Shown here one piece after another: positions 31,304 through 60,739 of a DNA stretch of 64,000 nucleotides. The stretch comes from a virus. The notes under the pieces were generated by a model that saw only the letters and a list, made by a program, of their open reading frames with translations, ran no database searches and had not been told where the DNA came from. The stretch spans positions 32,001 through 96,000 of the IMG/VR virus record IMGVR_UViG_3300032242_000488; one strand, 5' to 3'. The first letter of the stretch is position 1. The number at the start of each line of letters is the position of its first letter. Both the position numbers and the translations under genes were made by a program.

Positions 31304-32992
31304 ATGGCATTACAAATTAGACGCGGACCAACAGCAGACAGAACAAGCAAAGTATTTGCTGAGGGCGAATTAGTTTACGACACGCAAGAAAAAGCAGTAT
31401 ACATCGGCGACGGTACTACTTCTGGTGGTAAGGCAGCATCATCTTATACTGACGAGCGAGCAGTTGATGCAGTAGGTGCGGCACTGGTTGCTGGTACTGG
31501 TAATGTTGTTTTCACCTATGGAACAACACAAGATAATGCCAATAGAATAGATGCAACTGTTACTTTAGACGGCATCGGTCTTACTGCAATTAATCAAGAC
31601 ACAAGTCCACAGCTTGGCGGTAATTTAAGTTTAAATAGTCACAATATTACAGGTACAGGTAGCATTAATATTACCGGTGATGCTACTGCTACTAACTTCT
31701 ACGGTGAACTACACGGTAATGCGGCTACTGTTACTAACGGTATCTATGCTGGACAGAAGTTTCATATTGGTACTACAGAAATTGATATTGGCAGAGTATC
31801 TGCAACACAAACATTAACTGGCACAAATATTGATGGTAACGCCGGTGGAAACGCAGCCACTGCAACTAAATTGGCAGCTACTAAAAACATCAACGGTGTA
31901 GCATTTGACGGTAGTGCCGATGTTACAGTAATAACACAAGGCACAGGAGTTACTGTTAGCGGAAGCACTATTAGTATTGGTCAAGCTGTTGCTACCACTA
32001 GTAATGTTACATTCAATGACGTAACAGTTAGTGGTAATTTAATTGTTAACGGCGATACTACCACACTTAATACAACAACACTGACTGTTGAAGATATTAA
32101 TATTAACATTGCTAAAAATGCAACAAGTATAGGAGCGGCTGATGGGGCAGGAATTACTATTGGTAACTATGCAAACAGCCCAACTTTAACATATCTACAA
32201 AGCGGTGATAAACTTGTTTTTAATAGACGAGTTGATGCTACAAGTTTTTATGGTGATTTTACAGGCAATGTGACCGGTAATGTTACAGGTAATGTAACAG
32301 GTAACGTGACTAGCGTAAGCGATAATTCATTTGGAACAGCAACTATTAGCGGCGGCGATAGTAATAATTCTAGTTTGAAACTTGCAGGATACAATCAACG
32401 TGGTGGTGTTGGGTTCCATGGATTTTTAGAAGTTAGAAACAACTATTCTTCTGCGGCAAATCCCAACAGATATTTCCGTTTAAATTCCGATGGTGTTTTA
32501 GAAATTATCAACAGCTCATATGCCGTAACGTTATTGGCATTAGACAATGATGGCAATATGACAATCCATGGAACATTCCAATCTATTGGTAATATAACTG
32601 CTCCACAATTTAACGGAGATGTAGCAGGTAATGTTATTACTACTAATATTAATACTCCAACTATAGGCGGAATACTAACTGTTCCTCCTCAAGTAAAATT
32701 TAACAATTATGTTGATATTGATCAAGGACTATCAATAGCAGGCGATTATGTAGTATCAGTATCTGGATATAAAGTGGTTAGTGCCGTTGCTCCAGGATTT
32801 ACAACTGCTGTTGATCTAACCAATACTAGAGCAACATTTAATGTTCCAGTACGTTTTGGTAGCTATACAACAACACAAAGAAATGCACTGACACCTACTA
32901 ACGGTGATGTAATTTATTGTTCAGACAGCGGACCTGGCGGTATTGGTCAATTCTTAGGCTATGCAAACGGTGCTTGGACATCGCTAAGTTAA
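31304..32992 (+). CDS. Tail fibre protein with Mtd_N-like N-terminal domain
   Basis: MALQIRRG...EGELVYDT..K.VYIGDG.T.GG N-terminus; ATKLA..KNINGV.FDGS.DV and TGNV x4 fibre repeats. Confidence 0.8.
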   Translation: MALQIRRGPTADRTSKVFAEGELVYDTQEKAVYIGDGTTSGGKAASSYTDERAVDAVGAALVAGTGNVVFTYGTTQDNANRIDATVTLDGIGLTAINQDTSPQLGGNLSLNSHNITGTGSINITGDATATNFYGELHGNAATVTNGIYAGQKFHIGTTEIDIGRVSATQTLTGTNIDGNAGGNAATATKLAATKNINGVAFDGSADVTVITQGTGVTVSGSTISIGQAVATTSNVTFNDVTVSGNLIVNGDTTTLNTTTLTVEDININIAKNATSIGAADGAGITIGNYANSPTLTYLQSGDKLVFNRRVDATSFYGDFTGNVTGNVTGNVTGNVTSVSDNSFGTATISGGDSNNSSLKLAGYNQRGGVGFHGFLEVRNNYSSAANPNRYFRLNSDGVLEIINSSYAVTLLALDNDGNMTIHGTFQSIGNITAPQFNGDVAGNVITTNINTPTIGGILTVPPQVKFNNYVDIDQGLSIAGDYVVSVSGYKVVSAVAPGFTTAVDLTNTRATFNVPVRFGSYTTTQRNALTPTNGDVIYCSDSGPGGIGQFLGYANGAWTSLS

Positions 32993-57938: not shown

Positions 57939-58661
57939 ATGAGAGCAAATGAGTTTATAACTGAAGCATGGAGTCAGAAATACAAAAAGAGTATTAACTG
58001 CTCGCACCCTAAAGGTTTCAGTCAACGTGCCCATTGTGCTGGTCGAAAGAAACACAACGAATCAGTTGAGATGGAAATGACATGCCCTGACTGCGGCATG
58101 TGCGAATCACACGGCAATCTTAGTGAAATCAAAAAAGGTGCTAAAGACAGCAATGGCTTTACTAAGTGCTGGTCTGGATATCATGCCGCAGGTACAAAAC
58201 AAGGTAAGAATGGTTCAGTACGTAACTGTGTAAAGAATGAAAGCACAGAACTAGAAGAAGAGTTTGATCTTATAGAATCAATCATAGCTGATCTAGCTCT
58301 ACGCAATGGTGTTAACGAAGATGCTGTTTGGGAAGATTTAGAAACACTTACTGACGATGAACTATATGTGTTTGCTGTTACACAGCCAGTTAACGAAGAT
58401 TGGCAGAAAGTCAACAAACACGATAAGACTTCAGGTATGAGTCAAAAGGCAGTAAATGCCTATCGCAGAGAAAATCCAGGCAGTAAACTAAAAACTGCTG
58501 TAACAACAAAACCTAGCAAACTAAAGCGTGGTAGCAAAAGTGCCAAGCGTCGATCAAGTTATTGTTCTAGATCCGCTGGACAAAAGCGTATGCATCATAT
58601 AGATTGTAGTAAAACTCCAGACAAAGCAATTTGTGCGGCACGCCGTCGCTGGAACTGCTAA
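57939..58661 (+). CDS. Modular putative internal head protein with Cys-rich peptides (C-terminal DUF6321-like)
   Basis: MRANEFITE|AWSQKYKKSINC.HPKGFSQRAHC; CPDCGMC; KCWSGY...RNCVK; GMSQKAVNAYRRENPGSKLKTAVT...RRWNC. Confidence 0.75.
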   Translation: MRANEFITEAWSQKYKKSINCSHPKGFSQRAHCAGRKKHNESVEMEMTCPDCGMCESHGNLSEIKKGAKDSNGFTKCWSGYHAAGTKQGKNGSVRNCVKNESTELEEEFDLIESIIADLALRNGVNEDAVWEDLETLTDDELYVFAVTQPVNEDWQKVNKHDKTSGMSQKAVNAYRRENPGSKLKTAVTTKPSKLKRGSKSAKRRSSYCSRSAGQKRMHHIDCSKTPDKAICAARRRWNC

Positions 58662-59221
58662 TGCGAGCAAAGGAAATATTTGAAAACTTTGCTGACGGTA
58701 AACATCCTGAAGATAAGGGTGATAGCAAACGTTATCATGTACCAACTAAGGCTAGTGTAAGCACACTACGCAAAGTTGCCAAGCAGGGCGGACGTAAAGG
58801 ACAATTAGCACATTGGATGGCTAACATGAAAGCTGGTCGTGCTAAACATGAAAGCACAGAATCCGCAGATCCTAAAAAAGAAAAACTCATACACGACTTT
58901 CTTAAGTTTGCCACTAAGAAGCTACAATTACGTTCTGATTTTACAATAGAGTTTAGTTACGATACTAAGTCTGCACAAGATGAACATCACACAGGTGCAT
59001 ATAACTTTAAAAAGAATCATATGACTGTGTATTCTGCACATCGTAATCTAATAGATATATTACGTACATTATGCCACGAGCTAGTACATGCCAAACAAGA
59101 TCAGTTAGGACAACTACATCATCACGATGCTCCGGGTAGCCCACACGAAGCACAAGCAGATGAGATTGCAGGATATTTGATTAAGTTATACGTGAAGAAA
59201 CATCACGATATAATACAATGA
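58661..59221 (+). CDS. Putative internal head protein with an HExxH zinc-metallopeptidase domain
   Basis: MRAKEIFE|NFADGK... basic module, then DILRTLCHELVHAKQ...E.QA. Confidence 0.75.
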   Translation: MRAKEIFENFADGKHPEDKGDSKRYHVPTKASVSTLRKVAKQGGRKGQLAHWMANMKAGRAKHESTESADPKKEKLIHDFLKFATKKLQLRSDFTIEFSYDTKSAQDEHHTGAYNFKKNHMTVYSAHRNLIDILRTLCHELVHAKQDQLGQLHHHDAPGSPHEAQADEIAGYLIKLYVKKHHDIIQ

Positions 59222-59324
59222 ACACACCTTAGGACCGGTACTTGTTACCGAAAGTGTGCGCCGGCTGCTGGCGCAGGACGGCCCGATTCGCTACCGGGAA
59301 TCCTGGAAGTGAGCACTTTTTTTT
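59222..59324 (+). ncRNA. Unclassified GC-rich structured RNA element
   Basis: Helices CACAC/GTGTG, CGGTA/TACCG, CGCCG/TGGCG, CAGGA/TCCTG and CCCG/CGGG; possible pseudoknot TTCGCT/AGTGAG; ends in T8. Confidence 0.65.
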
Positions 59325-59337
59325 GGGTAAATACTAG

Positions 59338-60036
59338 ATGATTATATTATATACGTTAATACTAACACATATTACTATTGTTTGCGTTACCCTGTTCCTA
59401 CATAGAGGACAAGCACATAAAGGATTTGTTTTTAATCCTGTGCTAGAACACTTTATGCGCTTCTGGTTATGGTTAACAACAGGTATGGTTACTAAGCAGT
59501 GGGTAGCGATACACCGCAAGCATCACAGATTCAGTGATGTTGAGGGTGACCCGCATAGTCCACATGTATATGGTATATGGCGTGTATTCTTTAAGGGCGC
59601 AGGATTATATCATGATGCTAGTAAAGATGCAGTTATGGTTGCTACTTACGGTCAAGGTACTCCTTATGATTGGGTAGAGCGTAACATTTATACACCCCAC
59701 AGTCGCCTGGGCATTCTCCTAATGTTAGTTATAGACTTGTTGTTATTTGGGCCTTTAGGTTTAATAGTGTGGGGTGTACAAATGATATGGATTCCGTTCT
59801 GGGCCGCTGGTGTTATTAACGGAATAGGACATTGGTGGGGATATCGTAATGGCAAAACTAAAGATCATAGTCGTAATATTAGTCCTTGGGGCATTGTTAT
59901 TGGTGGCGAAGAACTGCATAACAACCACCACTTGGACCCAGCGAGTCCCAAGCTCAGCAAAAGGTGGTTTGAGTTTGATATAGGCTGGATGTGGTTTACA
60001 GTATTTAAAACACTTAGACTAGCAAAAGTTAGATAA
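59338..60036 (+). CDS. Delta-9-type acyl-CoA/fatty acid desaturase
   Basis: Three His boxes HRGQAH, HRKHH and HNNHH; GDPHSP; W.EFDIGW; TM segments. Confidence 0.92.
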   Translation: MIILYTLILTHITIVCVTLFLHRGQAHKGFVFNPVLEHFMRFWLWLTTGMVTKQWVAIHRKHHRFSDVEGDPHSPHVYGIWRVFFKGAGLYHDASKDAVMVATYGQGTPYDWVERNIYTPHSRLGILLMLVIDLLLFGPLGLIVWGVQMIWIPFWAAGVINGIGHWWGYRNGKTKDHSRNISPWGIVIGGEELHNNHHLDPASPKLSKRWFEFDIGWMWFTVFKTLRLAKVR

Positions 60037-60044
60037 ATATTATT

Positions 60045-60428
60045 ATGAGAGCAAAAGAATTTATTAAAGAAGCTAAAAAAGGTCATATGCTAAAGATTGA
60101 TCCAACTCACAAAGCTGGATTAAAAAATGCTATGACGTTTCCCGATCAAAACTCAAGTACAGGGTCAGCATATCTTAACTGGAGAATGGGTATTGCTCTA
60201 GCAGGTGCACCTGACTATCCTACAAAAATGGCCGCTGATAACTGGATCGGTGGAGACCCATTAGTTAGCACGTATACTCAGGAAGAATACGATATGGTAG
60301 TAGCTGCCAATGATGTAATCGGCGGTGGGCCACTGGAAAACTGGTCTGGCAAACGTAGCGAAGAACTTCCAGGTACACATAAAACAAGTCCAGTAGCTAA
60401 ACCAAAACGTAACAAGTACGGCGTATGA
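60045..60428 (+). CDS. Putative internal head protein
   Basis: MRAKEFIKE| N-terminus; late box 5 nt upstream; C-terminal SPVAKPKRNKYGV. Confidence 0.7.
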   Translation: MRAKEFIKEAKKGHMLKIDPTHKAGLKNAMTFPDQNSSTGSAYLNWRMGIALAGAPDYPTKMAADNWIGGDPLVSTYTQEEYDMVVAANDVIGGGPLENWSGKRSEELPGTHKTSPVAKPKRNKYGV

Positions 60429-60739
60429 AAATAAACGAGCTGTTAACAGAAGCCCCGATCGACTTTGATCCTAACGAGCCGATGAATCCGCTAGTACATA
60501 GCCACCAAGGTGCTAATCCTGGCAAGCTACAGTATCGTATGTTACGTGCGGCAGGTCAGTTAAAGGATCTTGCCAAGAGAGCAGAACATGCTAGTCCCTT
60601 AGAATGGGAAATGATTGCCAAAAACTTTTCAGAACTAGCAATGAACGTTGAACAGATTAGACATGGTCTAGAAGAACTTGCCGCACAACGTAAAAAAGGT
60701 GGCGTCCGTTCAAGAGGCATAGATCCAACTATTGGATAA
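60425..60739 (+). CDS. Putative internal head protein
   Basis: MKINELLTE| N-terminus; helical body. Confidence 0.7.
   Translation: MKINELLTEAPIDFDPNEPMNPLVHSHQGANPGKLQYRMLRAAGQLKDLAKRAEHASPLEWEMIAKNFSELAMNVEQIRHGLEELAAQRKKGGVRSRGIDPTIG

Follow-up and report, generated by a model that had tools for sequence, protein, structure and literature searches.

Introduction

Huge phages are known to carry many translation-related genes. Among the RNAs that come closest to the one described here, the guide RNAs of archaea and eukaryotes have the helix-69 (H69) region of the large-subunit rRNA as a classic target, and elements of the turnip crinkle virus type contact the large ribosomal subunit. To our knowledge, guide ribonucleoproteins have not been found in bacteria or their viruses. 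The region of 23S rRNA that spans helices 69 and 70 (H69-H70) lines the A site.

Subunit association and the contacts with tRNA and RRF depend on the helix/loop-70 region, which two toxins, MazF-mt3 and MazF-mt6, cleave; MazF-mt6 does so in the free 50S subunit and not in the 70S ribosome (PMC5408214). H69 forms the intersubunit bridge B2a, and helices H67-H71 are highly flexible or unstable in late 45S assembly intermediates (PMC3737534). Judging from this literature on H67-H71 and MazF-mt6, the target proposed in this study would be functionally central, exposed in the free 50S subunit, and unfolded in late precursors.

The present analysis concerns a stretch of 64,000 nucleotides, hereafter the window, which corresponds to positions 32,001 to 96,000 of the IMG/VR virus record IMGVR_UViG_3300032242_000488. 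The complete record spans 167.5 kb and is estimated to represent 46% of a genome. Its family-B DNA polymerase shares 43-51% identity with those of cultured jumbo phages of 350-490 kb, namely Phosso, Atu_ph07, and the 121Q/Rak2 group. At positions 59220-59316, the plus strand encodes a stand-alone small RNA, about 95 nt long, that had not been described before. This RNA is a concrete candidate for the manipulation of ribosomes at the RNA level.

The RNA Gene and Its Immediate Surroundings

The element lies in a gap of 116 nt between two co-oriented genes, and the covariance model R1 matches it at positions 59217-59316 (103 bits, E = 3e-29). The upstream neighbour is an open reading frame of 196 amino acids (58631-59221, with its TGA stop at 59219-59221) that belongs to no Pfam family, and the downstream neighbour is a fatty-acid desaturase gene (59338-60036; PF00487, E = 1.4e-13). 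A preliminary description, prepared from the nucleotide sequence alone, had singled out a GC-rich island that starts directly after the TGA and ends in eight T residues. Reading of the sequence agrees with both limits, and the GC content is 0.55 compared with 0.31-0.43 in the flanks. The features of the locus are collected in Table 1.

Table 1. Features of the RNA gene and its surroundings; positions refer to the window.
Feature	Position	Strand	Remarks
Whole ncRNA	59220-59316	+	From the conserved 5' GAAC leader to the 3' GAGCAC; covariance-model match
P1, CACAC (59223-27) / GUGUG (59254-58)	59223-59258	+	Encloses J1/2 and P2
J1/2, ACCUUAGGACCG	59226-59237	+	Unpaired; 12-nt exact antisense to E. 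coli 23S 1920-1931; predicted duplex dG -22.1 kcal/mol
P2 hairpin, CGGUA/UACCG (59236-40/59246-50), loop CUUGU	59236-59250	+	Carries the conserved GUUAC; 5/5 pairs covary
P3 hairpin, CGCC/GGCG (59259-62/59270-73)	59259-59273	+	Loop L3 GGCUGCU (59263-69)
P4 CAGGA/UCCUG (59274-78/59301-05) enclosing P5 CCCG/CGGG (59282-85/59295-98) and loop L5	59274-59305	+	
L5 segment, UUCGCUACC	59287-59295	+	9-nt exact antisense to 23S 1929-1937 (end of H70 stem and loop); predicted dG -15.6 kcal/mol
3' tail, AAGUGAGCA	59307-59315	+	GAGC (59311-14) pairs with L3; 97% of cells paired
T8 run	59317-59324	+	Lineage-specific and outside the family; 26/97 distinct members have 4 or more T in the 12 nt next to the tail
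TAAATA box	59328-59333	+	T4-late-promoter-like; 4 nt ahead of the desaturase ATG (59338); presumed function

The frame that follows the TGA stays open to 59341 in the window, as had been noted previously. Among the members of the family there are insertions and deletions that are not multiples of three, so this open frame is not a conserved reading frame, and the remote option of a readthrough signal was rejected.

Two further observations concern the neighbouring desaturase. More than 599 stretches related to this phage gene occur among viral contigs, which makes it a common auxiliary gene of the lineage. With the TAAATA box so close to its start codon, the desaturase mRNA would be nearly leaderless and lack a Shine-Dalgarno sequence. 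The same spacing between box and ATG recurs 3' of the RNA in related loci, for example GGATAAATATTAGATG.

Distribution in a Lineage of Huge Phages

Loci were first collected through two flanking proteins and then searched for the element with blastn. Since the loci were chosen by their flanking proteins, the selection was unbiased towards the RNA. About 25 homologues of the element were obtained from them by blastn, at varying distances from the desaturase gene. Three pattern scans of viral contigs gave at least 120 hits each. Among the first 281 loci, 151 occurrences were counted, with about 130 distinct sequences. A covariance model built on 30 close members then detected 61 further copies in 100 other loci and 99 copies in a diverse set of 100 sources, and the family comprises more than 200 loci overall.

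The 167.5-kb record that contains the window holds one real copy according to the covariance model. A second model match in this record, located outside the window (G000:C1:141660-141745, minus strand; 11.5 bits, E = 0.44), includes UUAGGACCGGUAAC, which resembles the J1/2-P2 junction; the other conserved blocks are missing, and the match was set aside as noise that probably arose by chance. Exactly one copy was found in 20 of 25 whole related records, and this was the case for all eight records that are at least 90% complete; the five related records that have no copy are fragments of 32-58%. This amounts to one copy per genome of 300-400 kb, and the element is a single-copy gene in every complete genome sampled from an uncultured freshwater lineage of huge phages.

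A blastn search of 50,697 phage records with both the locus and the element detected no homologue. The five cultured relatives that are closest by DNA polymerase (Sinorhizobium phage Phosso, Agrobacterium phage Atu_ph07, Vibrio phage 2.275.O, Xanthomonas phage XbC2, and Escherichia phage 121Q) were searched with the model and with patterns, and none had a copy, with the model filters being stricter in this search so that weak matches may be lost.

The freshwater metagenome DNA runs X1, X5, and X8 show a sharp peak of summed contig depth at window positions 59176-59259, that is, over the 5' part of the RNA. In X8, the depth over this part is 3005, compared with 4 in the preceding bins. The peak indicates a block common to many related phages in the same samples. 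In X18, a metatranscriptome run with a low share of contigs that speaks neither for nor against expression, the contigs compared with 58000-60500 leave the element uncovered.

Secondary Structure and Covariation

The predicted fold of the single sequence is no better than those of its shuffles (z = -1.3 on the plus strand and -1.8 on the minus strand), and the case for a structured RNA therefore depends on comparative data. The preliminary description had recommended collecting homologues and examining covariation, and had proposed five stems. All five can be read in the sequence and are backed by covariation in an alignment of 99 homologues (97 distinct rows), which was evaluated for five nested helices and a pseudoknot against 500 shuffles. 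In this alignment, pairing extends to 86.8% of cells (66.4% in shuffles), 24 of the 27 pairs change on both sides (shuffled mean 18.5), 482 cells carry changes on both sides (160 in shuffles), and the covariation score is 0.398 (0.113 in shuffles); no shuffle out of the 500 reached the observed value on any of these measures. Sliding the partners by 1-3 columns lowered pairing to 35-45% and the covariation score to 0.024-0.095. Compensatory changes thus exceed both the shuffled and the slid controls, and the covariation in 99 homologues is decisive for a structured RNA.

The individual helices contribute as follows. Five of the six columns of P1 are double-changed, with variants such as AUUCAC/GUGAAU and ACAUA/UAUGU. 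All four pairs of P3 covary, with 97% of cells paired, and all eight pairs of the P4-P5 arm have changes on both sides, the variants of this arm being designated types A to D. Across the helices, 108 G-U combinations were counted versus 65 A-C combinations, of which 23 come from one optional column, leaving 42 without it. This excess of G-U over A-C indicates that the plus strand is the RNA.

Among the blocks left unpaired by this fold, the most conserved are J1/2 (CCUUAGGACC, with an optional 5' UA), the GUUAC of P2, L5 with its CGCUACC core, and L3. In one subgroup of loci (L175, L244, L288, L305, L319, L345, and L287), P1 is replaced by a helix of 7 bp formed in cis between CCUUAGG and a CCUAAGG that lies downstream. 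The CCUAAGG partner is identical to 23S 1924-1930, so that the predicted duplex between RNA and rRNA is found here inside one molecule.

The loop of P3 and the 3' tail form an H-type pseudoknot across the inserted P4-P5 arm. The register is G59264-C59314, C59265-G59313, U59266-A59312, and C59268-G59311, with G59267 bulged. Seven independent compensated variants of L3 and tail were found: GCCAC/GUGGC, GCUAC/GUAGC, in which an inserted U turns the bulge into a pair, GCCCC/GGGGC, GCUCC/GGAGC, CCCAC/GUGGG, the complete swap CCCCA/UGGGG in member L509, and a change from G-C to A-U in member L298. An earlier proposal that UGCU pairs with AGCA had named the right partners, the P3 loop and the 3' tail, but placed them two positions out of register, since the variants support GCU(G)C with GAGC.

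Two other pairings suggested for the tail region did not hold. The loop UUCGCU in L5 had been thought to pair with AGUGAG in the tail; members with a changed tail leave L5 unchanged. RNAalifold also proposed a pairing of L5 with the tail, which is ruled out by L509, where the tail reads AUGGGGC, L3 reads ACCCCA, and L5 is kept. A switchable helix between AAAGUG and CACUUU is not conserved, as it needs a T-run that occurs in just 26 of the 97 distinct members.

Complementarity to Ribosomal RNA

The rRNA reference was the annotated rrnH operon of E. coli. The three longest exact rRNA matches of the window's element are all antisense, and sense matches reach at most 9 nt. Nearly all members contain the J1/2 core CCUUAGGAC, among them most of the 20 matches obtained without any RNA pattern. 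The GUUAC of P2 is complementary to 23S G1910-C1914 within the H69 loop, and in other members J1/2 and P2 form an unbroken match to 23S 1914/1917-1930. The members with the longest matches copy the antisense of the H69 loop, the H69 3' strand, and the beginning of H70. The flank on which the J1/2 match continues varies with the sublineage (23S 1917-1930, 1919-1933, and 1921-1933; overall span 1917-1933), and the match never falls below 10 nt. In L5, the family-wide core is CGCUAC(C). In members of type C, this core gives way to ACGCCAUUC, the antisense of 23S 1968-1976, which lies in the same domain 40 nt downstream; types B and D have no good rRNA complement.

A further antisense match of 11 nt, also exact, joins positions 59262-59272 in P3/L3 (CGGCUGCUGGC) to 16S 517-527 in the 530 loop, where complementarity amounts to 9-11 nt among members. 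Because L3 is occupied by the pseudoknot and varies with the tail, this 16S match is probably incidental. The same P3/L3 segment also fits 23S 1902-1910, which adjoins H69, with two G-U pairs.

Of the 97 distinct members, 87 have their longest antisense match (10-17 nt) in 23S 1900-1950 and 8 have it in the 16S 530 loop, compared with none in either region for the sense control (7-12 nt) and one in each for the shuffled antisense control (7-13 nt); the homologues are related, and these counts are not independent trials. A conserved unpaired seed complementary to 23S rRNA is thus found beyond chance, in 87/97 members as against 0-1/97 in the controls. The chance that a given 12-mer matches anywhere in 4.5 kb of rRNA is about 0.03, and it is far less beside a second matching block. 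The phage record itself contains no sense-strand target for J1/2 or L5. At the level of sequence, the invariant unpaired nucleotides of the family perfectly complement a stretch of rRNA that is universally conserved. This match to 23S H69-H70 is a strong and testable lead to a function rather than a demonstration of one.

J1/2 reads CCCUAGG in two related members, which creates a mismatch with A1928. Among 185,579 species genomes, a single one has the 23S variant that would match, and host tracking by the CCCUAGG variant was discarded for that reason.

Proposed Mechanism and the Case for a Folded Relic

The reading that we prefer, with a probability of roughly 45%, is that the RNA may act in trans by base-pairing with the 23S rRNA of the host. 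J1/2 and the adjoining part of P2 would form a duplex of 10-17 bp with 23S 1917-1933, comprising the 3' strand of H69, the linker, and the 5' strand of H70, and would thereby invade the stems of both helices. Loop L5 would kiss the adjacent helix-70 loop (1929-1937). In the minimum free energy fold of the isolated 23S segment, H69 corresponds to 1906-1924 and the H70 hairpin to 1927-1930/1941-1944, with a loop at 1931-1940. Binding would block, mark, or shield this surface of the 50S subunit; candidate outcomes include hindered subunit joining or maturation, guidance of an enzyme, a repair splint, and protection from ribosome-cleaving toxins. The wider proposition, that huge phages encode a dedicated RNA which pairs with host 23S rRNA from helix 69 to helix 70 and would inhibit, mark, repair-splint, or shield ribosomes, is more tentative.

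Several points speak against pairing with 23S rRNA. J1/2 and L5 share the target GGU(AG) at 1929-1933, so that full pairing of both with one 23S molecule is impossible. Pairing of J1/2 also requires that the H69 and H70 stems of the folded rRNA be melted. The tail AAAGUGAGCA and the 5' GAAC, neither of which has an rRNA complement, are conserved as much as J1/2; invariance alone is therefore no pointer to rRNA, and it also fits a compact tertiary core. In the subgroup with the cis CCUUAGG/CCUAAGG helix, this helix would sequester the proposed seed.

The alternative that survives best, rather unlikely as we judge it, is that the RNA owes its activity to its tertiary fold, serving as an aptamer or as a scaffold for a protein, and that the rRNA match is the relic of an antisense 23S rDNA fragment from the vicinity of helix 69 that was later kept for another reason. 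High conservation extends to all unpaired blocks, even to the tail and the 5' leader, as in compact folded RNAs, and the seed sequence is paired in cis in one subgroup. P2 is collinear with antisense H69, as expected of a captured fragment, and the fit of L3 to 23S 1902-1910 is collinear with the same arrangement. The helix-69 region of 23S rDNA is a hotspot of mobile introns and homing endonucleases. The matched stretch (E. coli 23S 1911-1937 versus window 59226-59295) is what we take to be the recognition site of the homing endonuclease I-CeuI and presumably also a cluster of group I intron insertion sites, which could bear on the origin of the 5' domain. A relic does not account as readily for sublineages that hold at least 10 nt of contiguous complementarity while switching the complementary flank, nor for two types of L5 that match two different nearby 23S segments, and no gene for a partner protein is linked to the RNA.

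Known RNA Classes and the Possibility of a Ribozyme

A comparison with Rfam, which had been suggested for this locus, gave no match at the gathering thresholds in the 64-kb window (Rfam 15, 4227 families). A permissive scan of 350 nt around the element returned three matches at chance level (E 5.5-9.9; 13.9-14.8 bits versus thresholds of 47-71). The element had been judged to be neither a tRNA nor a canonical hammerhead, and both judgements stand: ARAGORN reported no tRNA or tmRNA gene in the window, and the CUGANGA...GAAA core is absent on reading the sequence. The models of the hammerhead, twister, twister-sister, pistol, hatchet, and HDV ribozymes found no match in the 350 nt around the element, even at E <= 10.

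These results bear on the idea of a new class of small self-cleaving ribozyme that would process polycistronic transcripts of the phage where the upstream gene ends. Phage DNA often contains small ribozymes, and the compact pseudoknotted fold, the invariant junction nucleotides, and the usual site of the element, 3-13 nt past a stop codon and 10-30 nt ahead of the next start codon, would suit such a role. In addition to the empty model searches and the missing hammerhead core, a topology in which the tail pairs with the loop of another hairpin does not correspond to that of HDV or twister ribozymes, and the rRNA complementarity would be left unexplained. We therefore regard a ribozyme as improbable.

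Genomic Neighbourhood and Stand-Alone Status

The element has the orientation of its flanking open reading frames in most loci, and its neighbours are diverse. The upstream genes fall into 42 clusters among 116 open reading frames and the downstream genes into 47 clusters among 129. Pfam searches of ten recurrent neighbour genes yielded nothing RNA-related, and representative neighbours have unrelated Pfam domains or none. In L498, L508, and L208, a TAAATA box, a motif that also precedes many open reading frames here, is located 8-13 nt 5' of the RNA, which implies that the RNA would have its own promoter there. The unlinked neighbours, the promoter-like box of its own, and the single copy together indicate a stand-alone gene. 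Among the options that had been listed for the locus, that of a stand-alone phage ncRNA fits: the element is present in one copy, is conserved and covaries, and its neighbours belong to at least 42 unrelated gene families upstream and at least 47 downstream.

The same data make it very improbable, more so than for a ribozyme, that the element acts in cis on the surrounding mRNA, whether as a riboswitch, as an attenuator or terminator, or as an enhancer that recruits ribosomes to the next gene. Such a role could be imagined from the window, where the 116-nt gap between co-oriented genes is followed by T8, and from the start of the next open reading frame 10-30 nt downstream in most loci. With 47 unrelated downstream clusters, there is no consistent downstream gene as a riboswitch-like attenuator would have, neither a conserved terminator or T-run nor a sequestered ribosome-binding site was found among the members, and the interval from the element to the next ATG often contains a promoter-like box. 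A single copy per genome of 300-400 kb also argues against a cis element. An intrinsic terminator was considered separately and rejected, since the scan found no terminator-like site in 58500-60100 and the T-run occurs in 26 of 97 members.

It is highly improbable that the functional transcript is the minus strand, a decoy that would display 23S H69-H70 and the 16S 530 loop in sense orientation and titrate an rRNA-binding enzyme or toxin: its loops would show GUAAC, GGUCCUAAGG, GGUAGCGAA, and CCAGCAGCC, which are sites of rRNA modification and toxin cleavage (PMC5408214), but G-U exceeds A-C by about 2.5 to 1 in the plus-strand helices, U-G pairs, which would read A-C on the minus strand, occur in several variants of the pseudoknot, the flanking genes and promoter-like boxes are on the plus strand, and the H69 loop sequence is not conserved in the P2 loops.

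Significance

If pairing with 23S rRNA were true, this would be the first natural antisense or guide RNA directed at rRNA in bacteria or their viruses. As the target is universal, such an RNA would work irrespective of the host. E. coli has the same target sequence, so the idea can be tested with neither the phage nor its host in culture. If the link to rRNA proves to be a relic, the element still defines a new RNA family with five covarying helices and a pseudoknot that has no entry in Rfam.

Comparison with Known Systems

Small RNAs that act in trans by base-pairing in bacteria and phages share with this element a stand-alone gene of about 100 nt and a short conserved unpaired seed, here J1/2 (10-17 nt) together with loop L5, that is complementary to a cellular RNA. 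Unlike them, the element has rRNA rather than mRNA as its predicted target, and its five helices and pseudoknot make it far more structured. The Hfq-type terminator tail is not a feature of this family.

The C/D-box and H/ACA guide RNAs of archaea and eukaryotes resemble the element in their 10-20 nt of complementarity to universally conserved, functional rRNA. In contrast to those guides, it has no C box (RUGAUGA) or D box (CUGA) within 59220-59316, and it lacks ACA boxes, a pseudouridylation pocket, a k-turn, and a linked partner protein.

Small self-cleaving ribozymes such as twister, pistol, hatchet, and HDV-like RNAs are similar in size, in their pseudoknots and invariant junction nucleotides, and in being frequent in phage DNA. 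They differ from the element in topology; the latter occurs in one copy per genome and gave no match to their covariance models at E <= 10. Finally, the T-shaped 3' structure of turnip crinkle virus is likewise built of hairpins and pseudoknots within about 100 nt. Structures of this type are cis elements of eukaryotic RNA viruses that mimic the shape of tRNA, whereas the predicted contact of the present RNA with the ribosome would rely on sequence complementarity and would be provided by a separate gene of a dsDNA phage.
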